From NCBI GenBank assembly GCA_007117035.1, contig SKHG01000018.1, positions 1 to 60,179 on the forward strand: a DNA stretch of 60,179 nucleotides, written 5' to 3'. Source of the DNA: Candidatus Campbellbacteria bacterium (GTDB lineage Bacteria > Patescibacteriota > Minisyncoccia > Phycocordibacterales > CSBR16-193). Made by a program: the position numbers and the translations under genes. Position 1 is the stretch's first letter. Every line of letters begins with the position of its first letter. Positions 4,012 through 52,551 of the stretch are shown here, piece after piece. Below the pieces are notes generated by a model, which saw only the letters and a list, made by a program, of their open reading frames with translations, ran no database searches and had not been told where the DNA came from.

Positions 4012-4040
4012 ACAATAAGGTAAATTACTGCTAATGTCAA
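4012..4040 (-). promoter_or_regulatory. Sigma70 promoter of orphan 3521-3967
   Basis: TTGACA-17-TATTGT followed by GTTCTTAAAAAC and AGGAGG. Confidence 0.75.
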
Positions 4041-4126
4041 TCTGTCGTTATGGTTCAATAGGATTAATTTTAAAAACCTGCTTTACTTCCCACAAACAAG
4101 GTCTAAATAAATTAAATTCATTTTTT

Positions 4127-5350: not shown

Positions 5351-5352
5351 GA

Positions 5353-9269: not shown

Positions 9270-9279
9270 CAATAAAATT

Positions 9280-10707: not shown

Positions 10708-10741
10708 AAATTACACGACTCTATCTTCTGAAAATAATTAT

Positions 10742-11362
10742 ATGCAAAAAGTTAGTCCAACTAGAATTAACCTCCTTTCATTGAAAAAGGAACTGAAAAC
10801 AGCTGAGAAAGGATACAAACTCCTGAAAGACAAAAGGGACGGTTTGATTAAGAAATTTATGGAGATTATCAAAGAGACTCGTGATCTTCGTTCAGAGGTT
10901 GAAGAAGAGATTCCTAGAACATTAGTCTCATACATTCGAGCTTCGGCTTCAATAGCAGAAAAGATTAATGAAGCGGCTTTTTTGGTTCCAAACGCTGAAT
11001 TAGAAATAGATGTCAAAACACGATACATAATGTCAGTTCCAATTCCACATTTTGATATAAAAACAAAAGGTCGTGCTTTTTCCTATGGCTTCCTAGAAAC
11101 TAGTGGAGAGTTAGATAACTCAGTTCAAAGAATTGAAAAAATTCTTCCCAAACTCCTACACCTATCAGAACTAGAAAAGACAGTAGAAAATCTAGCAGAA
11201 GAAATCGAAAGAACTCGTCGTCGCACCAGTGCATTAGAAAATGTTAGGATTCCACAACTTAATGTGTCGATTCGATATATCAGAGAACATCTCGACGAAC
11301 AGGCTCGTGATGCAATAGTTAGCACCATGAGAATCAAAGCTATGATTATGGCAAAAGAATAA
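10742..11362 (+). CDS. ntpD: V/A-type ATPase subunit D (central stalk)
   Basis: PTRINL...KGYKLLKDKRDGL, EIERTRRRTSALE. Confidence 0.93.
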   Translation: MQKVSPTRINLLSLKKELKTAEKGYKLLKDKRDGLIKKFMEIIKETRDLRSEVEEEIPRTLVSYIRASASIAEKINEAAFLVPNAELEIDVKTRYIMSVPIPHFDIKTKGRAFSYGFLETSGELDNSVQRIEKILPKLLHLSELEKTVENLAEEIERTRRRTSALENVRIPQLNVSIRYIREHLDEQARDAIVSTMRIKAMIMAKE

Positions 11363-11367
11363 TTTGC

Positions 11368-12096
11368 TTAGGATATTAATGTTCCTTTAAAAGATCTATT
11401 GTTTAGATAATGTTCAAACTGAGCAAGTTTTTTTCCGTTTATAATTGCAACCTCTATTCCCTCTTTCTCAGCCAACTTTGAAGCAACTGGATCGAAAGGA
11501 CTATTTAATCCCGGGTTCCATTTACCATTAAACATTTTCCTAAAATCTTTCCAGGAAATATCCTTAATTGATTTGGCGTCTGGGTTTTCTCTTGGGTCTT
11601 TATCACACACAAAGTCAATATTACTTAAATTTATAACTTTTTTAGAACCTAACATTCGAGCCAGCATAACCGTATCATAATCAGTACTACAACCCGGCTT
11701 CCAACCCCCAGCAATCATAATTTTTTTTCCTTTTGGAAAAATAACCGTCTCTGAGAGATCGGTTAATATTTTCGTGGCGGTTTTTTTACCAAAAATTGTT
11801 CGGATGAGTTGAGCATTTAAATAGGTGCTATATATTCCAAGCCAGTCTAGTTCAGTAGAAGATATGTGACTAACCTTAGAAGCTGCTTTTTGATATTTTC
11901 GACAAACATCACCACCACCAATCACTAAAACGAATTTCTTACCCTGTGCAACATATCCTAGGATACAGCGCTTGAGTGATAGCAAAAATGAGGTATCGAT
12001 GTTTTCTGGAACAACCAAAGAACCGCCGACAGAGATTATAATTATTTCACCACCATCTTTCTTTTTTTTATGCTTAATCGAATTCTCATTTACCAT
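11368..12096 (-). CDS. pyrH: UMP kinase, archaeal-type
   Basis: ISVGGSLVVP, VIGGG, LDWLGI, GGWKPGCSTDYD, LSNIDFVCDKDP, PFDPVASKLA. Confidence 0.9.
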   Translation of the reverse strand: MVNENSIKHKKKKDGGEIIIISVGGSLVVPENIDTSFLLSLKRCILGYVAQGKKFVLVIGGGDVCRKYQKAASKVSHISSTELDWLGIYSTYLNAQLIRTIFGKKTATKILTDLSETVIFPKGKKIMIAGGWKPGCSTDYDTVMLARMLGSKKVINLSNIDFVCDKDPRENPDAKSIKDISWKDFRKMFNGKWNPGLNSPFDPVASKLAEKEGIEVAIINGKKLAQFEHYLNNRSFKGTLIS

Positions 12097-12287
12097 AGTG
12101 TAATATTTAAATAAATTTATAACAAACACTGCACATCATACTGAAATAAGTAGATAGTGACAAATCGCAAGCTGTGGAAAGATGGGCTCTACAAAATATA
12201 TTTTCTGCTTCCGACAAACTGTCTTTTATGATAAGATACTCGCTGTAATTAAATATAGTCTCGTAAGAGAAATTTAGATAATCAAAA

Positions 12288-12602
12288 ATGACCTACATAA
12301 AAACAATATTAAAAACTGAAAGAGAAGCTCTGTCCATAAAGGAAAAAACTGACAAAAAAGCCAAAACAATTCTTGAGCAAAAAAAGGTTCAGTTGGACAA
12401 AGAACTAGAGGACTTTCAAAAAAATCTATTGGTAGAAAGAGGAGAAGAACTCGCAAACCAAAAAAACCGCCTCAAAAAGATATATACCGAAATTATTGAA
12501 GTTGGTAAAAAGCAAAAAAATAAGATGCAGACTACTCTAAACTCAAACAAGGAGAAGTCTGTTAGTTTTATTTTAGAAAAAATAAATCAGAATAATCAAT
12601 GA
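12288..12602 (+). CDS. V/A-type ATPase peripheral stalk subunit G/H
   Basis: 104-aa charged coiled coil overlapping the start of subunit I (ATGA); canonical first position in the operon. Confidence 0.7.
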   Translation: MTYIKTILKTEREALSIKEKTDKKAKTILEQKKVQLDKELEDFQKNLLVERGEELANQKNRLKKIYTEIIEVGKKQKNKMQTTLNSNKEKSVSFILEKINQNNQ

Positions 12603-14533
12603 GCCTACTAGAGATGACTAAAATTAGACTGGTGACTCACAAAGAAAGTGTCGCCAATACTGTAGAAACACTCCAAAAAATGGGGGTTGTTGAACTAACC
12701 GAAATAAAAGATAAGACTGACTTAAAATCACTAGAAAAAACTGTATTCAATATTGATCACACCTCTAGTCGAGTTGATTTTACTGTTTCCTTTTTATCAC
12801 ATTACGAAAGAGCCCCTTTTTTGAAAAAACTATTTGAAGGAGGACGAACTCAGACAACTGAGAAAGAGATGGAAGAAATTATGAAATCGTTTTATTTCGA
12901 AGACGTTGTAAAAAGAACAACTCAGATAATTGAGTCTATAAATACCTCAAAATCTCGACTAGAAGCACTTCAGGAAGAAGAAAGATTATTACTAAATTGG
13001 ACGAGCTGGGAGACACCCTTGTCATTTCCTACCACCACCGAAGAAACTCGGACTTTATTTGTTGAAGGAAAAGAAGAGGATATTACTTCGGCTGAAGAAG
13101 AGATTGCTGACTATCCAAACTATATCTACCAAAGAGTTTCTAATATTTGCTTAGCAGTCACTTGTTTAAAAGGAGACGAAAAAGCTCTGAAAGAAACCCT
13201 CACATCATACAAGCTCGAAGAAATAAAACTTCCAAAAAGATTAGGGACGGTTACTGATGAACTAGAAAGAATTAGGAAAAGTAAAATTAAGAACTTACGT
13301 CTTTTGGATCTAGCTAAACTAAGAGCAAATAGATTAGCTAGTTTCTTACCAAAACTTCGAGTTGTTAGTGACTATCTTCATTGGAGAAAAGAAAGAAACG
13401 ATATTACTTATCAGGCTTACGGAACCAACTCCTGTTTAATATTTGAGGGCTGGGCACCAAAAAAATCTATAGACGAGATTAGTAACAGATTGGTAAAACT
13501 AGAAGACCTTTCAGCAATCGAGGAGATCGAACCAGAAGACGGAGAAGAACCACCGATTGAGATAAGAAATAACAAACTAGTCGCTCCTTTCGAATCAGTG
13601 ACCAGACTCTACGGTCTTCCAGGTAAAAAAGATCTGGATCCAACACCTTATCTAGCAGGTTTCTTTTTTATATTTTTTGGTATCTGTCTATCAGATGCAG
13701 GTTACGGTTTAGTTTTAACAGGACTGACAGCACTAATTCTTTTAACATACAAAGTAACAGGTGCTACCAAACTTTTCATCCAACTCTTTATGTTGGGAGG
13801 TATTTCATCATTTGTTACAGGACTTTTCTTCGGTGGCTACTTTGGTATCGGGCCTGAATTTTTTCCTACTTGGATAGCAAACTTACAATATTTTGACCCT
13901 GTAGCTAATCCACTACCAGTTTTCTACCTAGCTTTAGGACTAGGTGTCTTTCAGATAGTTTTTGGAATTTGTCTTGATATAGTCAGAAGTCATCGTACCC
14001 AAAATCTAAAAGAAGGTCTTCTGGACAATGTTCCGTGGTTGATTTTCTTTGCTTCTGTTATTCTTTGGGGTGGAAGTACTTTAGAAATAATTACTGGCTC
14101 AGAAAACATATACAGTTCAATAGTTTTGTTATCTCTTGTGATGATTACCTTATCTTCGGGTAGAAAATATCCTAAACTTTGGCAGAAGATATCAATGGGG
14201 ATTTTAGGTCTTTACAGTATTGTTGGTTATCTCTCTGACATACTCTCCTACTCTCGTCTCTTGGCTCTAGGTCTTGCTACTGGCGCACTTGCTTTTTCAG
14301 TCAACCTAATAGCAACTATGGCCTACGAAGCAGTACCGTTTGGTGGTATTGTGGTTATGATTATAATTCTAATAGTAGGACATAGTTTTAATCTTGCGGT
14401 CAATTTGTTAGGATCATTTATTCATACAGCTCGTTTGCAATTCGTTGAATTCTTTGGTAAATTCATTAAAGGAACAGGTAGGAATTTTAAGCCTTTCTAC
14501 CGAGAAGAGAGGAACATAATACTGAAGAAGTAA
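12599..14533 (+). CDS. ntpI: V/A-type ATPase subunit I (a)
   Basis: DPTPYLAGFFFIFFGICLSDAGYG, LSDILSYSRLLALGLA (essential Arg), HTARLQFVEFFGKF. Confidence 0.95.
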   Translation: MSLLEMTKIRLVTHKESVANTVETLQKMGVVELTEIKDKTDLKSLEKTVFNIDHTSSRVDFTVSFLSHYERAPFLKKLFEGGRTQTTEKEMEEIMKSFYFEDVVKRTTQIIESINTSKSRLEALQEEERLLLNWTSWETPLSFPTTTEETRTLFVEGKEEDITSAEEEIADYPNYIYQRVSNICLAVTCLKGDEKALKETLTSYKLEEIKLPKRLGTVTDELERIRKSKIKNLRLLDLAKLRANRLASFLPKLRVVSDYLHWRKERNDITYQAYGTNSCLIFEGWAPKKSIDEISNRLVKLEDLSAIEEIEPEDGEEPPIEIRNNKLVAPFESVTRLYGLPGKKDLDPTPYLAGFFFIFFGICLSDAGYGLVLTGLTALILLTYKVTGATKLFIQLFMLGGISSFVTGLFFGGYFGIGPEFFPTWIANLQYFDPVANPLPVFYLALGLGVFQIVFGICLDIVRSHRTQNLKEGLLDNVPWLIFFASVILWGGSTLEIITGSENIYSSIVLLSLVMITLSSGRKYPKLWQKISMGILGLYSIVGYLSDILSYSRLLALGLATGALAFSVNLIATMAYEAVPFGGIVVMIIILIVGHSFNLAVNLLGSFIHTARLQFVEFFGKFIKGTGRNFKPFYREERNIILKK

Positions 14534-14601
14534 TCCGCGATCAGATCCGCGGGTTTGTTAGTTAAGCTTAATTATTCGTTTATTCAATCAATTATTTAAA
14601 T

Positions 14602-15081
14602 ATGGAAATTATTACAATCGGAACCGCATTAGTTTTTGCAGGAGCAGCAATATCAGCAGCCTTGGGTTTTAGTGGGTCAGCAATCGGAATGGGTTACGCT
14701 GGTCAGGCTGCATCAGGAGTTCTGGGCGAGAAACCAAATCTTTTTGGTAAAATGTTATTGATGCAGGCTTTGCCTGGATCACAAGGTATCTACGGCTTCG
14801 TTGGTGCCTTTTTAATTTTGAACTTTGCTGGTATTTTAGGGGGTGAACCAGGAGTAATTATTGAAACCTCAGTTGGTTGGCAGTATTTAATGGCTGGAAT
14901 TCCAATCGGAGTAGCAGGTTTCTTTTCAGGAATGTTTCAAGGAATGGTTGCTGCATCTGGTATCTCCATGATTGCCAAAGATGAAGCGAATATGGGAAGA
15001 GCTATAATCCTCTCAGTTATGGTTGAGACCTGGGCGATCTTTGGTGTATTGATAAGCTTTATCTTGTTGACATCGATGTAA
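14602..15081 (+). CDS. ntpK: V/A-type ATPase proteolipid subunit K (4-TM, NtpK-like)
   Basis: LPGSQGIYGF, SGMFQG, MVETWAIFG; double hairpin with a single Glu in TM4. Confidence 0.95.
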   Translation: MEIITIGTALVFAGAAISAALGFSGSAIGMGYAGQAASGVLGEKPNLFGKMLLMQALPGSQGIYGFVGAFLILNFAGILGGEPGVIIETSVGWQYLMAGIPIGVAGFFSGMFQGMVAASGISMIAKDEANMGRAIILSVMVETWAIFGVLISFILLTSM

Positions 15082-15095
15082 GAAATTATAAATTT

Positions 15096-15674
15096 ATGTC
15101 TATTGAAGCCATAACAGAAAAATTACTTTCCGAAGCTAAATCAGAAAGTCAGAAAACTCTCAAAGAAGCAGAACTCAAAATATCTCAGCTGGAGAATGAT
15201 TTAGAGGAGAAGAAGAGAGATCTTCTTCTTAAAGAAAAAGAATACAGGTCAGCTAACGAAAAGGAAAATACATCAAGGGTTCAGTCCAAAGCTAGTTGGC
15301 AGGTAGAACAAGAAATTGAGAAATTGAAGCGTGAGGCTCTGGACGAAGTTTTTGAAAAAACTCTAACCAAACTAAACTCTCTCGAAAACAATGAATACAA
15401 AAAAGTCTTAACAAAACTTTTGAAAAAAGTTGAGGTAGATATTTCTCAGAAAATCACTGTCTTTATTCCAAAAAACCGAGAGAAAGAAGTGACAGAAGTT
15501 TTAATTGAAAGGTTCGGCAAAGATCATAAATTTGAAATCAAGACAGACACAAACATTTCAGGTGGAGTAATCATATCTGGATCTGAGTTTGAGTACGATC
15601 TTAGCTTCCCTTCTCTTTTACGAAACATTAAGGGTCATGTCGAGCCAGAGATATCTAAAATTTTATTTTCCTAA
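15096..15674 (+). CDS. ntpE: V/A-type ATPase subunit E
   Basis: N-terminal coiled coil, ISGGVII...YDLSF C-domain, operon position. Confidence 0.85.
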   Translation: MSIEAITEKLLSEAKSESQKTLKEAELKISQLENDLEEKKRDLLLKEKEYRSANEKENTSRVQSKASWQVEQEIEKLKREALDEVFEKTLTKLNSLENNEYKKVLTKLLKKVEVDISQKITVFIPKNREKEVTEVLIERFGKDHKFEIKTDTNISGGVIISGSEFEYDLSFPSLLRNIKGHVEPEISKILFS

Positions 15675-15679
15675 AAATT

Positions 15680-16666
15680 ATGCAAAATGGCTATATATAT
15701 GCCGGTACCAGAGTTAAATCTTTAGAAAATTCGTTACTGAACGACGAACAGGTAGATATGTTACTTGCTGGAAAATCCTTTGAGGATAGTTTTTCCACAC
15801 TACATGGAACATTTCTAGGAAGATATATAGCAAATCGAGACAATAAGGACTTGTCATTAGTTTTAGAAGAAGCCATAAATGACTCCAAAAATCTTTTGTG
15901 TCTGATTTCTCCAGAGAAGGATATTTTGGATATTTTGTGGCTCAAGTATGATTTTTATAATCTAAAGGTAATAATCAAAGGATCTATTGCAGGGCTAAAC
16001 GATGAAGAAATTGAAAAGAACTGTTTTGGGTCAGGAAAATATACCCCGCAAGAACTTCTTGAGCACTATCGAGGAAACACTTTGTCTAGAATAAATATCT
16101 TCCTACAGAAAGCTATGGAACAATCTCGATCCTACGAAGAAGTTTCAGAGATTGATCGAGCAATGAACCTTAACTACTTCGAAGCAATAAAATCTATAGC
16201 GTGGTCTAAGAAAAATAAGTTTGCTAAAGATTATGTAACACTTTTGATAGATATTTTTAACATTCAAGCTAACTTAAGAGCACTTTCTTATGGTGAGGCT
16301 CTAGAGACACCAACAGCTCTTTTTGTATCTGGTGGAAGTCTAAAACAGAGTGATCTGGAAAATAAAGATCGTATCCTAGAAAATATTCACAAAATTGGTG
16401 GAAAGGTTGGGACATGGAAAGAAGCGGTCGAGGATTATAAAAAAACTGGGGATTACGTTATTTTGGAAAGAATTAGTGATAACTATCTTGCAAATTTTCT
16501 TAAAGAAAGTAGTTATGATATTTTTTCTCCCGCTTCCCTTTTCTCATACTTTCACGCCCGAAAAAATAATATCCAATTAATCAGAAGTATACTAGTTGGA
16601 AAACAAACAGGTCTTTCAGAATATGAAATTAGAAAAATGTTAAGAAAACTTTATGGCGGAAAATAA
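15680..16666 (+). CDS. ntpC: V/A-type ATPase subunit C (d)
   Basis: YIYAGTRVKSLENSLL, YDFYNLKVII, IDIFNI, IRKMLRKLY. Confidence 0.88.
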   Translation: MQNGYIYAGTRVKSLENSLLNDEQVDMLLAGKSFEDSFSTLHGTFLGRYIANRDNKDLSLVLEEAINDSKNLLCLISPEKDILDILWLKYDFYNLKVIIKGSIAGLNDEEIEKNCFGSGKYTPQELLEHYRGNTLSRINIFLQKAMEQSRSYEEVSEIDRAMNLNYFEAIKSIAWSKKNKFAKDYVTLLIDIFNIQANLRALSYGEALETPTALFVSGGSLKQSDLENKDRILENIHKIGGKVGTWKEAVEDYKKTGDYVILERISDNYLANFLKESSYDIFSPASLFSYFHARKNNIQLIRSILVGKQTGLSEYEIRKMLRKLYGGK

Positions 16667-24266: not shown

Positions 24267-25055
24267 ATGTCAAAAATATCACTACCAGTATCTATTGCAG
24301 TTGCCGGATTTTTAGTCGCTAGCACAATGTTAGTAACAACTTTTGATATTAAAGATATTTTTAGCGGTTTGTTTGGTAAGGACAAACAAGCTATTGAAAT
24401 GCCGTTGGTTCAAAAATCCAAAGATCATATTCTTGGAAATCCCGACGCACCTCTTTTTATCATTGAATATTCAGATACCGAATGCCCTTTTTGTCGCGAT
24501 TTTCACAACACAGTAAAGAATATTCTAGAAGACTGGGGACCGACCGGAAATGTCAGTCTAGTCTATAGACACATGGCAACACTAAACAGTAACTCATACA
24601 ATGAAGCTCTTGCGTCTGAATGTGTTGCAGAGATATCTGGGAATCAAGATTTCTGGAAATATATAGCATCAATTTATAACCAAAAATTTGGAATGCAGAT
24701 TGACCCACAAGAACCAAGAGCAAACATTTATCTTCTAGCTACCGATCTTGGTATCCCAGAAGAGGAAATGATTGATTGTGTTGAGAGTGATAGGTTTAAA
24801 GAAAAAGTTGACCGGCAGCTTATTGAGGCTATTTCTGAAGGTGCAAAAGGAACACCATTTATTGTATTAGAATATCGAAAGGGTTTTTCTGAACAAGTTG
24901 ATGATGTTGTTAAAAATATCCAAAAACAAGCAAATGTTGCAATGTACTTCAGCTCTGACAATAAAAAGATAGTGATAGACGGAGCTTTATCATACGAACA
25001 GCTTTCATTACTTATCGATTCAATTTTTACATTACCTATTCCCGAAAATATCTAA
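24267..25055 (+). CDS. DsbA/thioredoxin-fold membrane-anchored oxidoreductase
   Basis: N-terminal TM, DHILGNPDAP, EYSDTECPFC, GAKGTP. Confidence 0.88.
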   Translation: MSKISLPVSIAVAGFLVASTMLVTTFDIKDIFSGLFGKDKQAIEMPLVQKSKDHILGNPDAPLFIIEYSDTECPFCRDFHNTVKNILEDWGPTGNVSLVYRHMATLNSNSYNEALASECVAEISGNQDFWKYIASIYNQKFGMQIDPQEPRANIYLLATDLGIPEEEMIDCVESDRFKEKVDRQLIEAISEGAKGTPFIVLEYRKGFSEQVDDVVKNIQKQANVAMYFSSDNKKIVIDGALSYEQLSLLIDSIFTLPIPENI

Positions 25056-42241: not shown

Positions 42242-43570
42242 ATGACAACAATATTCATATTAGTAGCTGTAGCTACTTTAATTTATGCAGGATTATCTTT
42301 AGTGGTGATCCTCTTTTTAGCCAAAAGAGGTATATACTTCACTCGAATCGAAAAAGGTAATACTGTGTTCATAAACCGAGGAGATGACATGAGGGTTATC
42401 TGGCCAAATGTAGGCGGGTACCGAATGTCAAGTGATTCGGATCTCGATGGTCGACACTGGTTGATCAAAGATGATGATGAAGAAAAAAGAAATAAGGCGT
42501 TCTTTTATGGGGCTATGTGTGGAACTGTGTGGTTCCAAAAATGGCTCTGGGAGACATTCGGTATTCGTTTTATTTCATGGTTCTGGCCTAACACCAGGGT
42601 TCACACCTTTGGAATAGATCGGAAGAGATATCGAGATAAATCTTCCTCGACTAAAGAGACTCCTCTTAGTGACAGAGTTATTGTTTCTCCGGAATGTCCA
42701 GAAGTCTCTTCACTGAGAGTTATAGTTCCTAGACCTATATACATGTCGGAACTTGAACTACCTGGAGATAACTCCAAAATAAATCTCGTCATTTTGCCGA
42801 CTTTTTGGCAAGTTATACCCTCAATTCCAGTGTACTATTACAAAGGGGACTTCTTCCCTTTCATAGACGCTGCTATCGAGGCTACGATGATCGATTTTGT
42901 GGCAACTCACCGAGTAGCAGTCACAGAAGAAGGTGAATTCCATTCAGATGACTGGAATGCGTTGGGAGATGAAGACAAAAAGAAATACTTCCCAGCTCCA
43001 CTGAACTTCTTTCACTGGATGAAGATTGGAAAAGGTGAAGGTTCAGTAATTGAAAAACGTTTTCGGAACCTTAACGCTAGTAGAAGTTTCTACAACAAAG
43101 TAAGAAGGAAAAAAGGAAATGACGGAAAAAAATCAGAGATATTTAAGGAACTTGAGAGAATAACTCACGGGAAACCGCCTGAAATCTCTGGAAATATAAA
43201 GGGAGAAATCCCACACGGTATCATTCCTCGTTTTGGGTTTTCTTTAGTTAGCATTAAGCTTGCTGACTGGGAAGCTCACGAAGACACTCAAAAACTTGGT
43301 GAGGCTATCCTTACGAAACAGACCGAGCTACACAAAGCCGAAGGTACCCGCCAGGAGGCTATGGGTACTCGAGATGCAATCAAACTGAAAGCATCAGCTG
43401 AATCCGATCGGATTAACATGATTATGCAAAAATTAATCGACCAAGGTGTTCCGGCGGATGAAGCAAACCGAACCGTTCAAGTTATTCTTGAGATGGAGAA
43501 TCTGAAAGAATGGAGCGGTAAGACCTATGTAAGAGGAGGTGGTGGTGTGATGGTCCAAGACACTAACTAA
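42242..43570 (+). CDS. SPFH/band-7-like membrane protein (divergent)
   Basis: N-terminal TM, RFGFSLVSIKLADWE then AEG/EA coiled coil typical of SPFH C-termini; TTGACA-17-TATAGT promoter and AAGGAGG SD. Confidence 0.6.
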   Translation: MTTIFILVAVATLIYAGLSLVVILFLAKRGIYFTRIEKGNTVFINRGDDMRVIWPNVGGYRMSSDSDLDGRHWLIKDDDEEKRNKAFFYGAMCGTVWFQKWLWETFGIRFISWFWPNTRVHTFGIDRKRYRDKSSSTKETPLSDRVIVSPECPEVSSLRVIVPRPIYMSELELPGDNSKINLVILPTFWQVIPSIPVYYYKGDFFPFIDAAIEATMIDFVATHRVAVTEEGEFHSDDWNALGDEDKKKYFPAPLNFFHWMKIGKGEGSVIEKRFRNLNASRSFYNKVRRKKGNDGKKSEIFKELERITHGKPPEISGNIKGEIPHGIIPRFGFSLVSIKLADWEAHEDTQKLGEAILTKQTELHKAEGTRQEAMGTRDAIKLKASAESDRINMIMQKLIDQGVPADEANRTVQVILEMENLKEWSGKTYVRGGGGVMVQDTN

Positions 43571-43787: not shown

Positions 43788-44528
43788 ATGGAAGAAAAAA
43801 AAGAAAGTCAAAAAGAGATCACAAAAAAACAGAGTAAGAACATTAATGGAAGTATCTGGGTTACACTTATTCTAGCGATATCATTTTTTCTATTGGTGTT
43901 CGGACTGACTATATTAATTAAATACCTAGCTGGTTCCACGGGTGTTTTGATAACCCTTGGAAACATGAAAACAGTTCTTGTAGTACTTATAGCACTACCT
44001 TTAGTGATAGCTGTTATAACCCTACTTGGTCTAGCTTTTAAAAAAAAGTCAGAAAACTCAGACTCGAATAAAAAACCCTCAGGGGTAAATAATTCATCTG
44101 ACCCTGTGAGGAAAACTATGCTTGGACTACTAACAATAGCCTTCATAGCTTCAATTGGTTGGATTACAGTCACAACCTTTCGAGGTCTAGCATCAGCCGC
44201 AGCCAGTGCTGGAGCGAGTGTTGTTGAGGCCCGAGAAGAGCGTCGAGCTTCTCTCAGGCAACAAGCAACCAGAGAAAGATTAGTCTCTGTACCAGCTACA
44301 GGGTGGAGCGAAACGATTGGAATTCCATCTAGACATGAATTCCGTTTCTTCGTAAGCGGTAAGGTTGAGGTTCAACCTTTAGGTGACGGCCATATGTTAA
44401 GGAAAGTAACGGTCGCACCAGACACAACATATTTTGAGTTCCCGCGTGGATTTAAAACTATGGGTTTCCGGTTCCGTTCTTTAACAGGTCAAGAAGAAGA
44501 AGTCTTGTTCGAGATCGAAAGGAGGTAA
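43788..44528 (+). CDS. Orphan three-TM protein with C-terminal beta-rich domain
   Basis: TTGACT-17-TATTGT promoter, AAAGGAG SD, three hydrophobic segments. Confidence 0.75.
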   Translation: MEEKKESQKEITKKQSKNINGSIWVTLILAISFFLLVFGLTILIKYLAGSTGVLITLGNMKTVLVVLIALPLVIAVITLLGLAFKKKSENSDSNKKPSGVNNSSDPVRKTMLGLLTIAFIASIGWITVTTFRGLASAAASAGASVVEAREERRASLRQQATRERLVSVPATGWSETIGIPSRHEFRFFVSGKVEVQPLGDGHMLRKVTVAPDTTYFEFPRGFKTMGFRFRSLTGQEEEVLFEIERR

Positions 44529-44532
44529 ACAC

Positions 44533-44566
44533 AAAGCGCGAGGGTTTTAACCCTCGCGCTTTTTTT
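44533..44566. terminator. Intrinsic (likely bidirectional) terminator
   Basis: AAAGCGCGAGGG-TTTTAA-CCCTCGCGCTTT followed by a T-run, between convergent genes. Confidence 0.9.
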
Positions 44567-44587: not shown

Positions 44588-44914
44588 TTACATCATCAAA
44601 TCAGGTTCTTGGATTCCAAAAGTAGCCAGAAGTGTGTATATAATTCCGTAAACCGAAAACATTATAACCATTCCAATAACACCCCAGAACATATTTCTCT
44701 TACCTTTCTCTCTCGCTTCTTCATTGTCTTGACCTGAGAGAAACTCTATAATACCCCACATAAACATAACCAATGCTAAGACAAAAAGAAGTAAAATCAG
44801 AGGATTAAGAATAAATTCGTTGATTCTTAAAAGTAACGGCGTTATATCAATCGCCGAATGCTCTTGCGCATGTGCGGTCGATACTAGACTAAATTTTTCA
44901 AACAGAAATCTCAT
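44588..44914 (-). CDS. VirB2/TrbC-like pilin paralog 6
   Basis: Signal peptide AHA-Q, two TMs linked by GQDNEEAREKGK, FMWG/MFWG. Confidence 0.75.
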   Translation of the reverse strand: MRFLFEKFSLVSTAHAQEHSAIDITPLLLRINEFILNPLILLLFVLALVMFMWGIIEFLSGQDNEEAREKGKRNMFWGVIGMVIMFSVYGIIYTLLATFGIQEPDLMM

Positions 44915-44938
44915 TTATAAATTCTAAACCAAACTAGA

Positions 44939-45292
44939 TTAATTATCACCGAATTGTGGTAACCCGCCAACATTAGGATCCTTTTCAAAACCAAGACCAT
45001 CAACAAGGACATTGACAATACCAAAGACTCCCAACATCAAAACAAACGCAATAATTCCCCAAAACATTATTTGTTTTCCTTCGGCTCGAGCTGTTTCATC
45101 ACCGGCAAACAGAACAAACTTGGTTAGACCCCACAAGAAGAACAAAAAGGCTAACGCCATCAAGAGCAGAGACAATGTGTCAATCCAGTTCAAAATTCTA
45201 TACAAAAAAGTTGTTATTTCATCTTCTGCAAAAACCAAAACCGGAACAACCAAAACTAACGCAACTGCACCACCTAAAATATATTTTTTCAT
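44939..45292 (-). CDS. VirB2/TrbC-like pilin paralog 5
   Basis: VFA-E signal, ALAFLFFLWGL...AGDETARAEGKQIMFWG. Confidence 0.75.
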   Translation of the reverse strand: MKKYILGGAVALVLVVPVLVFAEDEITTFLYRILNWIDTLSLLLMALAFLFFLWGLTKFVLFAGDETARAEGKQIMFWGIIAFVLMLGVFGIVNVLVDGLGFEKDPNVGGLPQFGDN

Positions 45293-45442
45293 TTTTTTTT
45301 AACTACTAATAATTATAACCAATTTAACGACTAAGCGACCTTTAACATATAAATTATACCAACAAAGTCGATAAATAGGAAACAATGGGTGTGGAAAAGA
45401 ATTTTTCACAGCCATTGTTTTGTTACATAATGCTGAATTTAA

Positions 45443-45793
45443 TTAAAATATATTACCAAGTAGATTAACAATTCCCCAAAGCGATAACATTACTGTAAAT
45501 GCAATTACACCCCAAATCATAATTCTCTTACCCTCCTCAACCTTTTCCTTTTCACCAGCTTGCAAAATAAAAATTGTTAGGCCCCAGATAAAGAACAAGA
45601 ATGCTAGTGCAAAAACTACAATGATTAAAATATCAATTATATTCAGAATTCTAGAAAAAAAGCCAACAAGACCTGGATCATCAGGATCAGGAGTAGTGCC
45701 CCCCCAATTAATTACATCATAAAACTGTGCATTCAACATAATTGGCCAAGCAGTAAGAGGAAGGAATAAACTGTAATATATTTTTTTTATCAT
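45443..45793 (-). CDS. VirB2/TrbC-like pilin paralog 4
   Basis: LNA-Q signal, ALAFLFFIWGL...AGEKEKVEEGKRIMIWG. Confidence 0.75.
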   Translation of the reverse strand: MIKKIYYSLFLPLTAWPIMLNAQFYDVINWGGTTPDPDDPGLVGFFSRILNIIDILIIVVFALAFLFFIWGLTIFILQAGEKEKVEEGKRIMIWGVIAFTVMLSLWGIVNLLGNIF

Positions 45794-45841
45794 ATATATT
45801 TGTATTATATCTAATAATAAATAGTTTTTAAACTATTATAA

Positions 45842-46219
45842 TTATAATTCAGGTAGAAAAGGAATACCTCCCGAATAAAAATCAAAAGTTCCAGTTATAA
45901 CAGCCAAAATACTGCTTAATGAAAAAAGCACCAGAAAAGCAATCACTCCCCAAACGATCAATCTTTTTCCGTTCTTAATATCCTCATCACTACCTCCCGA
46001 CTTAAGGGCTAGAATAAATTTTGCCAGACCCCAAATAAAAATCAAAAAGGCTAAAGCAAGAAGAACTATGACTAGAACAAAAAGTAGATCTATAATAATA
46101 TCCACAAAACCCTCAACTGTGTCCGTTCCACCATACTGAGAAAAGACAAAACTGGATGGAATTAAAGACAAAACAAACAGACCAGATGAACCAAATAAAA
46201 TTTTTGAAATATTTTTCAT
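45842..46219 (-). CDS. VirB2/TrbC-like pilin paralog 3
   Basis: VFS-Q signal, ALAFLIFIWGL...GGSDEDIKNGKRLIVWG. Confidence 0.75.
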   Translation of the reverse strand: MKNISKILFGSSGLFVLSLIPSSFVFSQYGGTDTVEGFVDIIIDLLFVLVIVLLALAFLIFIWGLAKFILALKSGGSDEDIKNGKRLIVWGVIAFLVLFSLSSILAVITGTFDFYSGGIPFLPEL

Positions 46220-46226
46220 AACAATC

Positions 46227-46613
46227 TTAATAATCAGTTATTTGAATAACCGTACCTTCAATTGCATATGCAATTGCCCATGATCCCAAAAGAACAACAG
46301 CACCAATCGCAGTCCAAACAAAAGCATTTTTAGCCTCCTGAAGTTTGTCTGAATTACCTCGAGCCATCACAAACAAAAAACCTGTATAGATTATCGCAAT
46401 AACCACAATTACAAAACCAATTGGAATCACGATTCCATCAATTATTGCGTATATAAGACCTTCAAAAGAATCAATGCCTGTAAGAGGATTCGGTATACCA
46501 CCACCACCAGTTCCACCACCAGCCTGAGCTAGAACTAAATCAGCTTGAAGAAAAGCAAAAGAAAAGAAGACTAATATCACAGCCGGTAAAATAAACTTAA
46601 ATATATTTTTCAT
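46227..46613 (-). CDS. VirB2/TrbC-like pilin paralog 2
   Basis: VLA-Q signal, IPNPL, IIYTGFLFVMARGNSDKLQEAKNAFVWTAIG. Confidence 0.8.
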   Translation of the reverse strand: MKNIFKFILPAVILVFFSFAFLQADLVLAQAGGGTGGGGIPNPLTGIDSFEGLIYAIIDGIVIPIGFVIVVIAIIYTGFLFVMARGNSDKLQEAKNAFVWTAIGAVVLLGSWAIAYAIEGTVIQITDY

Positions 46614-46671
46614 TGTGTTCCAGTTTAACATAATTTAATTAAAACATTTTAATAAATTTAATAAATTCTTT

Positions 46672-47082
46672 TTATGAGAGGACATCATAAACAGGATGAA
46701 TTCTGGCTGGTGCATCACCTAAATCAATATCCGTCAGAGCAAAAAGAATTAAACTAACTATCAACCAAGCCCCCAATACTATAACCAAACCAATTCCAAC
46801 ATTCAAAAAAAGACTGTGTGCCTGCTTTATCTTATCCTGACTACCGCCTGCAGAAATATAGAGAAAACCAGCCCATGCAAACATTAAGGCCGAAATCGGT
46901 ATGGCTATCCAAATCAAAAAATTAATAGAATTTTTTGCTAACTGGACTAAATCATCCCACCCACACCCCCCGGGACCACAATCTGGCACAATCTGTGCCG
47001 AAGATATCACTGGTATAGCTAGAAAAAAAATACCAAAAAAGAGAATAAGAATTTTATTTTTGTGAAGTTTTAATAATTTCAT
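46672..47082 (-). CDS. VirB2/TrbC-like pilin paralog 1 with CxxxxC motif
   Basis: SSA-Q signal, IVPDCGPGGCG, FAWAGFLYISAGGSQDKIKQAH; start overlaps the SBP stop codon. Confidence 0.8.
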   Translation of the reverse strand: MKLLKLHKNKILILFFGIFFLAIPVISSAQIVPDCGPGGCGWDDLVQLAKNSINFLIWIAIPISALMFAWAGFLYISAGGSQDKIKQAHSLFLNVGIGLVIVLGAWLIVSLILFALTDIDLGDAPARIHPVYDVLS

Positions 47083-48395
47083 AAAATATCCATGAGAGAT
47101 TGGTGTGCTCTTTTAATAGCCGAGTTAACACCCTCACGCCCACCAGTAATCGACTCGATCATCTCACGTATAATTTGGTCTGTCTGGTTCGGATCAGGAT
47201 CAAACCAGGACCTAGAACGGATTGCAGAATCATAGAAAACATCAATGTAAAACTCTTGTCGAGTTCTGTTTGATAACATATCTCTACGAACTGGAGGTGT
47301 TGCAAACTCAGCTTCCAAAACACCAAGAGATTTAGATCCTGTCAAAAACATAATAGCAGACAGTGATCTTTGAATATCTTTGGTTGAACGACTAATTGCC
47401 AAACCTTCCATCTGACCTGTTACCACATTACGAATTCGAGGTTCACTACGACCCTCACGCAAATACGGTAAAGGCGCAACATCAAAGTTTAGGTTTGGAT
47501 TGCGAAGTTGAATCTCCTTAATATCACCTGCTCGTCCAAGATACAAAGCTGATCGCCCTTGAGAAAAATACTCGAGAGAATCCGGTAGGTTCCTGTTCCA
47601 GGAGTAAATCCGACGACTCGGATCTGCAAAGTCAACAAAGAATGATACGGCTGAAACTGCAGGAGGTCTGGTAAAACCAAAATTTTGATCTAGGCCCGAA
47701 CGAACAACACCTCCCTCTTTATAGAAAATATCTCCACCAGTCTGCATAATTAATGTTGAGATAATGTCTTTAGCGTGTCGAATATTACGATACTCACCAA
47801 AAGAAATTGCGCTTCTACTGATTGTGCTATTTTCTCTATTTGTAGCTCTCACAGAAAAATCATCAAGGTCTTCCCAAAACTGTATCGGACCAACGAGACC
47901 AATATCTGAATGTATGTCTCTGTTCCAAAACATTACCAAAGGATCGATTATAACAGGTATAGCACTTATACCAGTTTCTGTTAGATATATATCTGCGTGC
48001 TCAACAAAAGTCGATCGGAAGTTTGACTCAGAAAATCTCTCGAAAGGAATATTGACCACAAACTCACGATAGGTTGAGAGTTGATTATCTGACACGAAAA
48101 AAATATCAGGACCACTACCAACAGCTAACGCTCTAATTAACTCGTTTTCAAAAGTGTTAATATTTTTCTTTTGATACCTCAATGTAATGTTTGTCTGCTC
48201 TTCTAGGCCACTAGCCGAAACCCAGTCTCCAAAAATCTCACTGTCCATAAAACCCCAAACTTGCAAACTGATTGGTTGCGGACCACTCTCAGAAGACCTA
48301 AAGGTTGAAAAAAGAATAATTCCAATTACTAAAAGCGCGCCGAATGTACCCATCACGACTAACTGGAACGGACTCATCTGTGAGATACCTTTCAT
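47079..48395 (-). CDS. Extracellular solute-binding protein (family 1, sugar-type), membrane-anchored
   Basis: N-terminal TM, LQVWGFM, AVGSGPDIF, IPVIIDPLVMFWNRD, FSQGRSALY, NPNLNFDVAPLP. Confidence 0.85.
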   Translation of the reverse strand: MKGISQMSPFQLVVMGTFGALLVIGIILFSTFRSSESGPQPISLQVWGFMDSEIFGDWVSASGLEEQTNITLRYQKKNINTFENELIRALAVGSGPDIFFVSDNQLSTYREFVVNIPFERFSESNFRSTFVEHADIYLTETGISAIPVIIDPLVMFWNRDIHSDIGLVGPIQFWEDLDDFSVRATNRENSTISRSAISFGEYRNIRHAKDIISTLIMQTGGDIFYKEGGVVRSGLDQNFGFTRPPAVSAVSFFVDFADPSRRIYSWNRNLPDSLEYFSQGRSALYLGRAGDIKEIQLRNPNLNFDVAPLPYLREGRSEPRIRNVVTGQMEGLAISRSTKDIQRSLSAIMFLTGSKSLGVLEAEFATPPVRRDMLSNRTRQEFYIDVFYDSAIRSRSWFDPDPNQTDQIIREMIESITGGREGVNSAIKRAHQSLMDIL

Positions 48396-48406
48396 ATAAT
48401 ATAATT

Positions 48407-48955
48407 TTACCTTGCTTTGTTTTTTTTCACAACAAAAATAAATCCGTAGTGATGATCTCCAGGGTGCTCCAACTCCTCCGACAGCTCTGCCCCTTGATCT
48501 ATAAACATTTTTTTAATCAATTCCTTTGAAACCACATCTTCAGGTTGAGGACCAATACCTCCAAACGAATCAAGCCAATCCAAAACCAAGACTCTCCCAT
48601 TATTCTTTATAATTCTGATTGCTTCGGAAACACATTTCTCCTTTTCGTCTATCTGAAATAAAGTGTTAGCTAACACGACAGCATCAACTAAATCTGATGC
48701 TAAACGACTACCGTTTTCTTTTTCTAAATCACCTTGGACTACCTCAACTACATGACCCAAACCTATTCTATCTGAATCCATTCTTATTTTTTCCAAGAGA
48801 CCTGTTTGAATATCAACAGCATACACCTTACCTTTTGGTGAAACGTTCTCAGCTATCGCTAAAGTATAAAATCCCGATCCGCTTCCAAAATCAGCCACCT
48901 TCATACCGGATGATATTTTTAATGTTTTTAAATTTTTTTCCGGATCCGAGAACAT
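48407..48955 (-). CDS. Class I SAM-dependent methyltransferase
   Basis: VADFGSGSG, VYAVDI, GDLE, VDAVVLANTL, GRVLVLDW. Confidence 0.9.
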   Translation of the reverse strand: MFSDPEKNLKTLKISSGMKVADFGSGSGFYTLAIAENVSPKGKVYAVDIQTGLLEKIRMDSDRIGLGHVVEVVQGDLEKENGSRLASDLVDAVVLANTLFQIDEKEKCVSEAIRIIKNNGRVLVLDWLDSFGGIGPQPEDVVSKELIKKMFIDQGAELSEELEHPGDHHYGFIFVVKKNKAR

Positions 48956-48992: not shown

Positions 48993-51473
48993 TTATAGAC
49001 ATATGACTGCCGAAGCTGCGTCTCCACTTCGTAGTTTCATTATTCTGACTCCTTGAGTATCACGTCCAAGGCGAGGAATCCCCTCAACCTCCGTTCTGAT
49101 AACGTTTCCGTTTTTAGAAATAGTAATCAACTCTTCCTCGTCTTCTATAACTCGACCGATAATAATCTCTCCAGTCTTATCAGTAACATGTGCAGTCTTT
49201 ATACCACTACCACCTCGTTTTTGAATTTTATATTTTGAAACGCTAGTTTTTTTACCATAACCTTTTTCACTCATGACCAAAACTACTGGATCTTTGTATT
49301 CTTTTTTCGAAACGTCAGCCCAGATAACTCTATCTCCTTTCTGCAATTTCATTGCTCTAACACCTCGAGCAGACCGGCCCATCTCTCTCAAATCACTTTC
49401 TTTGAAATTAATACTTCTACCCTTTGCGCTAGTAACCATCACCGAGTCACCCTTCTTACTAAAGAAAACCGAAACCAGTCGGTCATCTGTAGACAATTTA
49501 ATCGCAATCATTCCACTACGACGAACATCAGCAAAGGAACTTGAGGAAACTTTTTTACCAACCCCAGACTCAGTAACCATCACAACAGAGCATAGGTCCG
49601 AATCCATATCTTTTGGCATCGCTAATACAGAGTTGACCTTCTCATTCTGTTCCATCGGAATAAAGTTCATAATTGACTTTCCTCTGGTTGATCGACGGCC
49701 TTCAGGAATTTCGTACATCTTTCTTTTGTACACCCTTCCGTGGTTTGTGAAGAACAAAATATCACTGTGAGCTGAGGCTGTTAAGAAGGTTGTCACAAAA
49801 TCTTCTTCCTTGGTGTTTAGATCAATCACTCCGATTCCACCACGTTTTTGTTTTTTATATTCATTAGGATTTGTTCTTTTAACATATCCTCCGGAAGTTA
49901 TAACCAAAACTGATTCCTCATCTGCAACCAAATCTTCAACAGAAAGCGTTCGTGCTCCTCCAGAAACCACTTTAGTAAGACGCTCATCACCATACCTATC
50001 TTCAATCTCTTTTAACTCGTCTTTTATTATATTTTTTACCTTCTGGGCACTTTTCAAAATACTTTCCAAATCCTTAATCAATGCTTGAGTTTGAATTAAA
50101 TCTTCCTCAATTTTCTTTCTTTCCAAACCGGCTAATTTTTGCAGACGCATCTCCAAGATAGCTGTAGCTTGTAGATCTGAAAATTTATACTTTTGCTTTA
50201 ATTTACCATGAGCTTCATTAGCATCTTTAGATGATTTTATAAGCTTAATTATTTCATCGATATGATCGAGAGCCTTTTTTAGACCTAGCAAAATATGTTC
50301 ACGCTCTTTGGCTTTACGTAGGTCATACTCTGTTCTTCGACGAATTACATCCTTACGATGTTGAATAAAGGTCTCAAGAATCAGTTTCAATGAAAATGTC
50401 TGGGGTACACCATTTAACAGAGCCACCATGTTTACATAAAAAGTATCTTCGAGTTGGGTGTGCTTGTATATTGTATTTAAGACAGTCTGTGGGTGTGAGG
50501 TATTTTTTAAATCAACCACCACTCTAATATCAGAAGATGACTCGTCTCTCAAACCTTTAATACCTTCAATTTTTTTGTCACGAACCAAGTCAGCAATCTT
50601 CATAACCATATCTGCCTTATTAACTCGATAAGGAACCGAGGAAATAACTATTCGAGAACCACCTTTATCATCGTCTTCAATCTCAGCAAGGCCACGAGTA
50701 ACAATTCCACCACGACCAGTAGCATAGACATGGTGAATATCTTTTTTATTAAAAATAATTCCAGCTGTCGGAAAATCAGGACCCTTAATATACTCTAGCA
50801 AGTCTTCAGTTGTAGCATCAGGCTTATCAATCAAGTGATTAGTCGCACCAAGTACTTCACGTAAATTGTGTGGTGGAATATTTGTAGCCATTCCAACAGC
50901 AATACCTAAAGTACCGTTCAGTAATAGATTTGGTACTCTAGCTGGTAAAACTATCGGTTCTTCTCTAGTACCTTCATAGTTCGGTCTCCAGTCTACTGTC
51001 TCTTTTTCAATATCTGCCAACATCGAAGCAGATATTTTTGACATCTTCGCTTCGGTATAACGAGGGGCCGCAGCATTATCTCCATCAATTGATCCAAAGT
51101 TTCCTTGACCGATAGCTAACGGGTAACGCATCACGAAAGGTTGAGCCATTTTGACCAATGATTCATAAACTGCCACATCACCATGAGGATGATAGTTTCC
51201 TGTTACATCACCGGTAATCTTAGCCGACTTTCTGGTTTTACCACCAGCAACCAAACCTAGTTCATGCATAGTATAAAGAATCCTACGGTGAACCGGCTTT
51301 AGTCCATCTTTTACATCAGGTAGAGCTCGAGATGTAATAACAGACATTGCGTAGTCCAAATAAGACTCTTTCATTTCAGTAACAATACTGTACGGAACAA
51401 CATGAGAGACAAAAGGAGTCTCGTCTTTATTATCTTCAAAATCTTTGTTTTTATTTTTTTTACTTCCAGGCAT
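48993..51473 (-). CDS. gyrA: DNA gyrase subunit A
   Basis: [25 protein letters not shown] (catalytic Tyr), GyrA-box QKRGG in the CTD. Confidence 0.97.
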
Positions 51474-51535: not shown

Positions 51536-51919
51536 CTACTGCGACGGAAATTCTGGAACATCTCTTGGTCGAGGCGGAATATTTGTCACAGGGTTATCTG
51601 TTTTCTCCAAATAATCATCTTCGTACTCTTCATCACTATCCCAATCCAAACTATCATCAAAACTTTTAAAAATGTTGTCATACACTGACTTGATATCAGA
51701 ACTAAGAGAACTCCAAGAACTACTAATGCTATTTTTTAAAGAAACAGCTGGTGAAGGTGCTGATCCACTCCCAGATCGACTTGTAGACTCTGGATAAAAA
51801 ACACCAACCCCAAGCCAACTTAAAAATATCACGGACGTTACAATCAATGAGATTGACAACGCGACACGACGTCGAAATTTTCCATCTCGCTTTCTTAACC
51901 TTTCAAGGTAAGAGAACAT
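51536..51919 (-). CDS. Single-TM hypothetical protein
   Basis: Basic N-terminus, one TM, Ser/Asp-rich tail; packed 8 nt downstream of the upstream gene. Confidence 0.7.
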   Translation of the reverse strand: MFSYLERLRKRDGKFRRRVALSISLIVTSVIFLSWLGVGVFYPESTSRSGSGSAPSPAVSLKNSISSSWSSLSSDIKSVYDNIFKSFDDSLDWDSDEEYEDDYLEKTDNPVTNIPPRPRDVPEFPSQ

Positions 51920-51927: not shown

Positions 51928-52551
51928 TTAACTAGAGAGCGCAATAATCTCGCCACTTTTTTGGTCAAGGTCTTTTCTCTTTGCTACAAACTTTTCGTTT
52001 AGTGCAACCTTATCTTCCCCACCTTCATTAAAGAAACGCTTTAGTGTTTCCTGCTTATCATATTGAGCTGGGATAATAACCTTCGGAGCCATTTTAACTG
52101 CAAACTTATAGGCCTCCTCAGCACTCAAAACATCATCGCCACCAATCGGAGTGATTAAAATATCAACTCCAGACAACAGAGCAAGAGTTTCGGTATCAAT
52201 ATCCTTAACATCAGATATTGCACCCAGAATACAGACCTTGATATTATCCAAACTTATTAAATATATTGTGTTGTGTTTCTTACCACTATAAGAAGTTTTA
52301 GTTAAAAAACCACGAATGACAACTCCCTTAACTTCATACTCCCCCGGGCGAGAGATAACAAAAGCTCCGTCCTCCTCAGATTCTTTTTTCAAAATATCTT
52401 CAGAAATAAAATCGGAGTGATGAATGCTTGAGAGAACTATTCCATTATTAAAACGACCCTTACTCTTTAGTGATTCAGCTGGGTTGACCAACACCGAAAC
52501 ATCCCCATGTTGAATCTTAAAGAATTGTTTACCGAAATAAGTGATTATCAT
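51928..52551 (-). CDS. MBL-fold (Lactamase_B_3-like) protein with degenerate metal site
   Basis: ITYFGKQFFKI, PGEYEVKGV, VDILITPIGG, PKVIIPAQY; canonical THxHxDH reads SIHHSDF. Confidence 0.8.
   Translation of the reverse strand: MIITYFGKQFFKIQHGDVSVLVNPAESLKSKGRFNNGIVLSSIHHSDFISEDILKKESEEDGAFVISRPGEYEVKGVVIRGFLTKTSYSGKKHNTIYLISLDNIKVCILGAISDVKDIDTETLALLSGVDILITPIGGDDVLSAEEAYKFAVKMAPKVIIPAQYDKQETLKRFFNEGGEDKVALNEKFVAKRKDLDQKSGEIIALSS

Follow-up and report, generated by a model that had tools for sequence, protein, structure and literature searches.

Gene organization of the locus

We find that a chromosomal stretch from a Candidatus Campbellbacteria bacterium (contig SKHG01000018.1, positions 1 to 60,179; these 60,179 nt as a whole are called the window) carries, directly downstream of gyrA, a single operon that encodes a methyltransferase (MTase), a membrane-anchored solute-binding protein (SBP) and six small proteins, P1 to P6 (108–136 aa), resembling the VirB2 pilins of type IV secretion systems (T4SS). 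The window covers a core part of the chromosome in a Patescibacteria genome of low GC content (about 36%), is part of a 106-kb metagenome contig, and also encodes rpoB/rpoC, dnaG, sigA, RNase R, trmD, S16, ftsA/ftsZ, hisS, ddl and uvrC in addition to gyrA. Counting gyrA, nine genes follow each other on the minus strand (Table 1). The gyrA and MTase genes are separated by 37 nt and the MTase and SBP genes by 11 nt, the stop codon of the SBP gene and the start codon of P1 share 4 nt (ATGA), and the successive gaps from P1 to P6 are 40, 7, 48, 150 and 24 nt. Downstream of P6, a strong hairpin (minus strand: -31.8 kcal/mol, z -7.3; plus strand: -23.5 kcal/mol, z -6.8) closes both the pilin operon and the gene that converges on it.

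An earlier reading of this DNA, made from its letters and referred to below as the sequence-only reading, had seen here six tandem small proteins with a signal peptide, two transmembrane (TM) helices and a G-(D/E)-rich loop, and an SBP stop codon overlapping the first pilin start. The alignment and a structural model of P1 confirm the former description, and the overlap is as described.

Table 1. The operon and its immediate surroundings, in window positions.
Feature	Position	Strand	Basis or remark
gyrA	48993-51473	-	annotated DNA_topoisoIV/DNA_gyraseA_C; upstream context, possibly co-transcribed
Class I SAM (S-adenosylmethionine)-dependent methyltransferase (MTase), 182 aa, cytoplasmic, first gene of the cassette	48407-48955	-	Methyltransf_31/11/25
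Membrane-anchored MalE-fold (family 1) solute-binding protein (SBP), 438 aa	47079-48395	-	SBP_bac_8, AlphaFold2 (AF2) model
Pilin P1, type A	46672-47082	-	PF18895, 34.8 bits
Pilin P2, type B	46227-46631	-	PF18895, 31.3 bits; TrbC PF04956, 31.1 bits; both above threshold
Pilin P3, type C (middle, variable-copy)	45842-46219	-	PF18895, 25.9 bits (cutoff 26.6)
Pilin P4, type C (middle)	45443-45793	-	PF18895, 36.3 bits
Intergenic break, 150 nt, with hairpin and extended -10-like box	45293-45442	-	folding, comparison of gaps
Pilin P5, type C (penultimate)	44939-45292	-	PF18895, 44.6 bits
Pilin P6, type C-last, end of array	44588-44914	-	PF18895, 41.8 bits
GC-rich hairpin flanked on either side by A/T runs, bidirectional terminator	44533-44562	both	terminator scan, folding

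Assignment of the small proteins to the VirB2/TrbC pilin family

All six small proteins match the Pfam family T4SS_pilin (PF18895), with E-values from 1e-5 to 1.5e-11. Five of the six score above the gathering score, P3 alone falling just under it, and P2 additionally passes the threshold of TrbC/VirB2 (PF04956). Precomputed public Pfam calls agree with the PF18895 assignment, and the six proteins also match, below its cutoff, an NCBIfam family of pilin-like proteins from Mycoplasma integrative and conjugative elements. That six adjacent ORFs (open reading frames) should fall into one Pfam family cannot be chance. Judged by their profile hidden Markov model (HMM) matches, the small proteins are thus members of the VirB2/TrbC-type pilin family, as the sequence-only reading had supposed.

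At its N-terminus, each of the six has a signal-like helix that includes an AXA-type site. Two hydrophobic helices follow, with a G-(D/E)-rich...GK loop between them; cleavage of the signal peptides was judged by eye from the AXA sites. The AF2 model of P1, which was built on a 13-row alignment and is of moderate confidence (mean predicted local distance difference test score, pLDDT, 78), consists of a signal helix (residues 3-29) and a hairpin of two helices (42-77 and 82-119). Foldseek comparison of this helical hairpin with the PDB gave no match better than E=1, and a profile search of PDB sequences with the pilin found no pilin. The predicted signal-peptidase sites leave an N-terminal Gln in P1, P3, P4 and P6, and the 'A-Q' at this site is conserved in the pilin types A and B defined below, so that the mature pilins may start with pyroglutamate.

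The paralogues are strongly diverged. The other members of the array are 15-26% identical to P1, and even the type C pilin genes are only 62-77% alike in their DNA, so that neither duplication nor gene conversion has occurred among them recently.

Conservation of the cassette in related genomes

A scan of one genome per species with an alignment of the SBP identified 589 relatives, of which the best 80 were used for locus analysis; a scan of genome contigs with the single SBP sequence had found no relative. All of these best 80 are metagenome-assembled genomes of Paceibacteria/Parcubacteria, with 33-40% SBP identity, and they include Kaiser-, Wolfe-, Yonath-, Zambryski- and Taylorbacteria. The cassette is also present in complete genomes, e.g., OZ246398.1 and OZ253947.1. 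ORFs in the related loci were called de novo and searched with an HMM of the six window pilins, and in every locus that had sequence downstream of the SBP gene (76/76) pilin ORFs were found after it on the same strand. The first of them begins between about -73 and +137 nt from the SBP stop codon, with a single exception at +746 nt. The overlapping or near-abutting junctions between the MTase and SBP genes and between the SBP and pilin genes persist at 34-40% SBP identity. Thus, the linkage on which the sequence-only reading relied survives comparison, the order of MTase, SBP and pilins being kept in essentially every related locus.

The flanks were compared as well. gyrA lies upstream in nearly all related loci, at -38 to 2985 nt from the MTase gene, and the genes downstream of the array differ among loci. 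In a closer relative, public gene calls and Pfam matches give the order metallo-β-lactamase (MBL), gyrA, MTase, SBP and then seven pilin-type genes. In the window, too, a small Ser-rich membrane protein (127 aa) and an MBL-fold protein are encoded ahead of gyrA (51536-51919 and 51928-52551, both on the minus strand); the MBL gene precedes gyrA in most related loci and the small Ser-rich protein in a subset of them. The conserved block is hence larger than the cassette, which calls for caution in reading synteny as function. In a closer relative (L086, positions 3202-4585, and L088, same coordinates) the signature of a diversity-generating retroelement, the accessory protein bAvd together with a reverse transcriptase, lies just upstream of the MBL-gyrA-MTase-SBP-pilin block, and two large unannotated ORFs, which are possible targets, adjoin this element.

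Pilin classes and their order

Clustering of 415 pilins from the related loci gave three main classes (A, B and C), and their positions were counted in 59 complete arrays from the best match to each window pilin. Complete arrays hold 4-8 pilins, most commonly 6. Type A, to which P1 belongs, occurs once per array; the best match to P1 stands in first position in 55 of the 59 arrays. Its cluster spans 63 loci, and 62 of the 63 members have at least two Cys residues. The two nearly invariant ones follow just after the signal peptide and flank a loop of 3-38 aa of unconserved sequence. A DsbA/Thioredoxin_4-type protein encoded at 24267-25055 on the plus strand of the window is a candidate oxidase for this putative disulfide loop. 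Type B, the P2-like class, has a Gly-rich N-terminus and in 39/79 members an NPL motif, and the best match to P2 is found in second position in 50 of the 59 arrays. All positions after types A and B are occupied by type C, with one to five copies before a distinct last pilin. This last, P6-like pilin forms a subcluster of type C present in 66 loci and ends the array in 57/59 cases. The middle type C pilins vary in copy number among loci, the position of P3 varies, and P4 and P5 group together in a small lineage-specific subcluster as paralogues. In one related locus (L040) an ORF for a 2170-aa adhesin-like protein with Ig-like, cadherin-like, PKD and fn3 repeats is inserted in the array (9747-16259, plus strand), after four pilins and ahead of one further pilin gene.

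By sequence comparison, the first, second and last pilin genes are thus one-per-genome positional orthologues across species. The two subtypes noticed in the sequence-only reading are real, with P1 and P2 differing from P3-P6 and a Cys pair in P1. Its description of the pilins as variable holds for the middle copies, which do vary in number, and not for the first, second and last. Since these three positions keep both their order and their orthology, we suggest that the classes have distinct structural roles as major and minor subunits; a pure repertoire for variation fits this pattern less well.

An internal gap with a candidate promoter

The gap before the penultimate pilin gene is conspicuously long, with a median of 100 nt (interquartile range 72-121) in the 59 arrays, compared with medians of 5-13 nt for the other gaps. 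Its counterpart in the window is the 150-nt break between P4 and P5, which contains a hairpin (45380-45420; -15.1 kcal/mol, z -3.7) followed by an extended -10-like box, TGGTATAAT, at about 45353-45361. A TA[TAC]AAT box is found in 39 of 49 such gaps, whereas shuffled gaps gave 23.2 +/- 3.2 (at most 34 in 2000 shuffles). As a rule the box is 40-60 nt upstream of the start codon, and in many of the gaps it is accompanied by a TTG -35 element, with a spacing of about 17 nt. Conserved RNA structure was not found across these gaps (median z about 0), and for this reason a riboswitch or attenuator was dropped in favor of a promoter; nor did an Rfam search of the region give a credible match. We infer that the gap holds a candidate internal promoter that could boost expression of the last two pilins, in which case these two are likely to be the bulk subunits.

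The solute-binding protein and the methyltransferase

The SBP matches SBP_bac_8 with 38.9 bits against a threshold of 27. In its AF2 model (pLDDT 93.5), an N-terminal TM helix is joined by a short linker to a two-lobe domain, for which the top Foldseek matches are sugar SBPs and MalE (E=1e-23). A profile of the SBP retrieves 4r9f from the PDB at 3.6e-22, and hhalign aligns it with MalE with 95% probability over 350 columns. As modeled, the SBP has the carbohydrate-SBP (MalE-type) fold, and the assignment to a sugar-binding type in the sequence-only reading is borne out. Glu111 of MalE is aligned with the invariant Asp151 of the SBP, and the remaining ligand residues of MalE are not conserved; the SBP does have conserved W/Y/D/N residues. 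At 50% identity the family comprises 2607 clusters with E<=1e-3 and 879 with E<=1e-30; its members are uniform in architecture, all of about 430 aa, the nearest one other than the SBP itself being 42% identical.

The signal type of the SBP was judged by eye on the N-termini of 40 family members, which have a short Lys-containing start followed by a TM helix. A prepilin-type (class III) signal peptide was considered and rejected, as there is neither a conserved [KR]G motif nor a Glu at +5. Many homologues begin at the position of Met7, which could suggest that this is also the true start of the window SBP. Among the same 40 members, the TM anchor (residues 1-35 in the window) opens with a conserved S-x-F-Q-(L/I)-(I/V) stretch, the F-Q motif, and such conservation is unusual for a passive signal anchor. 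Genes for an ABC permease or ATPase were found neither in about 70 kb of the contig nor in the 80 related loci, as far as their genes were examined. The SBP may be thought of as a glycan-binding factor for adhesion, triggering or capture, and the adhesin role proposed in the sequence-only reading would be one form of this.

The MTase matches Methyltransf_31 (E=8e-16) and the related Methyltransf_11/25, and has a Rossmann-type SAM-binding domain. Its closest solved relative is the uncharacterised SAM MTase 3dh0 (E=1.8e-19), and it has no NCBIfam match at equivalog level. The gene is found directly before the SBP gene in 70 of 79 related loci and is absent in the other nine. In 21 of the 70, the MTase stop codon and the SBP start codon share 4 nt, and most of the other gaps are below 30 nt. 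The suggestion in the sequence-only reading that the MTase may modify its neighbors is in keeping with the tight coupling of the two genes, but agrees poorly with its absence from 9/79 loci and with a divergence that does not track that of the pilins.

Co-variation of the proteins of the cassette

This divergence was compared in a mirror-tree test on 37 loci, in which the distances between gyrA sequences were controlled for by a partial Mantel procedure. The SBP varies with pilin A (partial r 0.30, p 0.001), with pilin B (0.23, p 0.006) and with the last pilin (0.20, p 0.013), and pilin A varies with pilin B or the last pilin at partial r 0.47-0.48 (the p of 0.001 referring to A-B). For the MTase, the values are -0.05 to 0.06 with the pilins (the p of 0.72 referring to pilin A) and 0.14 with the SBP (p 0.08). 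We take the co-variation as weak support for a functional connection of the SBP with the pilins, and as no support for such a connection of the MTase with them.

Comparison with known pilin systems

Arrays of VirB2-like pilin genes are already known from Patescibacteria. In a survey of 3035 assemblies, VirB4 was found in 2417, VirB2-like pilins in 1948 of the VirB4-positive assemblies and, in 1135 of those, near virB4; 441 arrays were reported, which hold 2-11 pilin genes and have a mean identity of 25% (Quinonero-Coronel et al., 2025; PMC12102498). The array ring of the survey was defined as 'near virB4', Microgenomatia and Saccharimonadia were the richest in arrays, and the virB4 of Paceibacteria usually lies near dnaA/dnaN (PMC12102498). 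In Southlakia epibionticum, six PF18895 genes (SEML1_0014-0019) follow virB6 in a T4SS cluster, and the predicted pilin subunits are described as essential for epibiotic growth (Wang et al., 2023; PMC10633639). A 2025 review speculated that the pilus is a conduit for uptake from the host. The window array belongs to the same Pfam family and the same phylum, and it shares with the published arrays a chromosomal location, a tandem arrangement of about six strongly diverged paralogues, the lack of a relaxase, and a matching size and topology. It fits a published diverged array of 2-11 genes in all but its location: the published arrays are described next to virB4/virB6, whereas this one adjoins gyrA, and no T4SS gene was found for tens of kb around it. 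The window array further differs in being led by an MTase and a MalE-fold SBP, in its fixed class order and in its candidate internal promoter.

Term searches of the text and supplements of the literature, including PMC10633639 and PMC12102498, did not find an SBP or MTase partner of such arrays mentioned, and the accessions of the related loci were not found in the supplement of the published T4SS paper. As far as the literature searched shows, the MTase-SBP-pilin cassette beside gyrA, the order of pilin classes and the conserved internal gap with its promoter-like element all appear to be previously undescribed. The claim in the sequence-only reading that the operon is undescribed thus holds for the SBP partner and the class order, but not for the array as such, since arrays of 2-11 pilins had been published (PMC12102498; PMC10633639).

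The window pilins are small proteins, as are the VirB2, TrbC and TraA pilins of the T-pilus, RP4 and F, and share with them a long signal peptide and a pair of hydrophobic helices with a short charged loop. Those systems use a single major pilin encoded inside the T4SS operon, which is matured by cyclisation (TraF) or N-acetylation (TraX). The window array, in contrast, comprises several classes in a set order and belongs to a monoderm-type organism; no such maturation enzyme is present, and the searches gave no structural match.

Interpretation and alternative explanations

We propose, and would put the probability at roughly 0.6, that the locus is a pilin module with an SBP accessory which belongs to a chromosomal, non-conjugative T4SS of Patescibacteria and which in Paceibacteria lies beside gyrA, apart from the VirB4 cluster. 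We base this on the PF18895 and PF04956 matches, the topology and helical hairpin of the pilins and their published homologues, and also on the synteny in 76/76 loci, the tight gene coupling, the positional orthology, the internal gap, the co-variation, the fold of the SBP and the terminator.

In such a system, the pilins would be inserted by Sec and cut by signal peptidase I, which would leave two-helix subunits in the membrane, and a VirB4/VirB6 machine encoded elsewhere would extract these and polymerise them, giving a short heteromeric pilus or conduit. The last two pilins could then be the bulk subunits and types A and B low-copy specialised ones, with the hypervariable disulfide loop of type A as the likely contact surface or specificity determinant. 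The SBP, translationally coupled to type A and co-varying with the pilins, would serve as an extracytoplasmic carbohydrate-binding accessory. It may bind a glycan of the host envelope, and so mediate adhesion or act as a trigger, or it may capture a sugar at the contact site. The MTase would be co-expressed with the SBP and the pilins.

Several observations weigh against this proposal. VirB4, VirD4 and VirB6 were found neither in the 60-kb window nor in 10 kb past its far end (about 70 kb), in line with the sequence-only reading, which had noted the lack of VirB4, VirD4, a relaxase and an ABC permease; a relaxase was likewise not found there. Nor was a VirB4-like ATPase, or a VirB6 or VirD4, found within ±10 kb in any of the 80 related loci. 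Eight of the other large ORFs in these loci were scanned, among them every singleton with a Walker A motif, and proved to be SMC-like, ABC-F-type, LeuRS-type, GlmS, MurJ or LigD proteins or a giant adhesin. The neighborhood is generally syntenic, with MBL and gyrA upstream and rbfA and infB downstream, so some of the conservation of the cassette may reflect genome stability instead of function. The partial Mantel test is liberal for related sequences, and secreted proteins may share shifts in rate. Neither the Foldseek comparison nor the search of PDB sequences connected the pilin model with a solved structure of VirB2 or TraA, and we know of no PF18895 pilin for which pilus formation has been shown experimentally.

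If the missing machinery is taken at face value, the SBP and the two-helix proteins could form a membrane complex of their own, either an uptake or sensing device or a self-assembling surface structure that has no need of VirB4. The strict linkage of SBP and pilins, the absence of T4SS genes from every locus examined and of an ABC permease nearby, the co-variation of the SBP with the pilins, and the conserved F-Q in the SBP TM helix, which hints at a partner within the membrane, would all agree with this. We nevertheless regard it as unlikely, because the same Pfam family is found inside an essential T4SS cluster in Saccharibacteria, cleavable signal peptides and a VirB2-like loop are typical of T4SS pilins, such a module would be without an energy source, and an array size of four to eight is odd for a fixed channel. 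The lack of a nearby VirB4 is moreover no proof of independence from a T4SS, since pilins are near virB4 in just 1135 of 1948 assemblies and the virB4 of Paceibacteria lies near dnaA; the 'non-conjugative filament' of the sequence-only reading, if meant as T4SS-independent, does not follow from it. Synteny invites another explanation, which we also hold to be unlikely, namely that the order is conserved without any functional link: the SBP would be the receptor of an ordinary sugar ABC transporter with permease and ATPase encoded elsewhere, the MTase a housekeeping enzyme, and the pilins simply downstream in a stable block. It is consistent with the syntenic surroundings, with a divergence of the MTase that tracks gyrA and not the pilins, and with the complete MalE-type fold of the SBP. 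It does not explain, however, why the overlapping or abutting junctions persist while the gyrA-MTase distance and the downstream genes vary, why the SBP and first pilin genes are never split by an insertion in 76 loci, or why a residual co-variation of SBP and pilins is left.

Bartonella and Anaplasma phagocytophilum also have tandem, diverged, chromosomal copies of virB2 in a host-dependent bacterium, and these have been read as repertoires for variation. The paralogues found here could by analogy be an antigenic or host-range repertoire in which alternative pilins are used for different hosts, and the low identity within the array, the varying copy number and lineage-specific duplication of the middle type C pilins, and the hypervariable Cys-bounded loop of type A would fit. 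But three of the genes, the first, the second and the last, are single-copy positional orthologues whose order is kept across species, which speaks for structural roles, and the DNA shows neither recent repeats nor traces of gene conversion. Redundancy is also unlikely given that the Southlakia pilin subunits, six by Pfam, are reported to be essential, a finding with which distinct roles for the classes agree. We therefore consider a repertoire very unlikely.

We have also considered a 'bindosome-like' device, in which a T4SS-type pilus or conduit makes contact with the host cell and the tethered SBP captures host carbohydrate at its base or, alternatively, gates assembly upon binding a glycan. 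In the bindosome of Sulfolobus, sugar-binding proteins are assembled at the surface by the pilin-like Bas system; the signal peptides of these SBPs are of class III (type IV pilin), and the machinery they use is type IV pilus-like. SBPs are tied to transfer systems elsewhere too, as for PrgZ of pCF10, a family-5 peptide binder, and for ChvE-VirA of Agrobacterium, where ChvE is not encoded with the pilins. The likeness lies in a ligand-binding SBP that is tied to a pilin-like or T4SS apparatus and not simply to an adjacent ABC permease. The window SBP differs from those of the bindosome in its ordinary N-terminal TM anchor without a conserved [KR]G cleavage motif. We regard such a device as a quite unlikely variant; if it exists, it would couple a secretion-system pilus to an SBP for uptake or sensing, for which there is no described precedent.

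Patescibacteria make up a large share of the uncultivated bacteria and are host-dependent, and a T4SS with its pilin array is essential in the one species of the phylum that is genetically tractable. If our proposal of a T4SS pilin module with an SBP accessory is correct, a strictly conserved carbohydrate-binding partner in Paceibacteria would offer a concrete biochemical handle on this system, and the class order and separate promoter would suggest major versus minor subunits, a specificity element in the type A loop and a ligand to seek. The cassette also shows that, in the most species-rich class, a conserved pilin locus escapes surveys that start from virB4.

Other features of the window

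Downstream of the array, and convergent with it, a pair of genes (42242-43570 and 43788-44528, both on the plus strand) encodes a 442-aa protein and a variable 246-aa membrane protein. Relatives of the 442-aa protein bear an SPFH/Band 7 domain; among the 48 loci with a long enough flank, at least 18 have an SPFH-like gene of one cluster that converges on the array, and in 7 more loci a second cluster likewise matches Band_7 after the array. This neighbor could be a membrane-scaffold partner, or reflect plain synteny.

Further away, an operon at 7494-16666 (plus strand) encodes the A, B, D, I and C/AC39 subunits of a V/A-type ATPase, together with small ORFs, and not an F-type ATP synthase; for a Patescibacteria genome an archaeal-type or laterally acquired origin is possible. 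At 4127-5937 (minus strand), a Peptidase_S24 protein (LexA/UmuD-like, 194 aa) is encoded ahead of a Y-family polymerase (IMS/DinB-like, 407 aa), an arrangement that resembles an SOS-type mutagenesis pair in a reduced genome.

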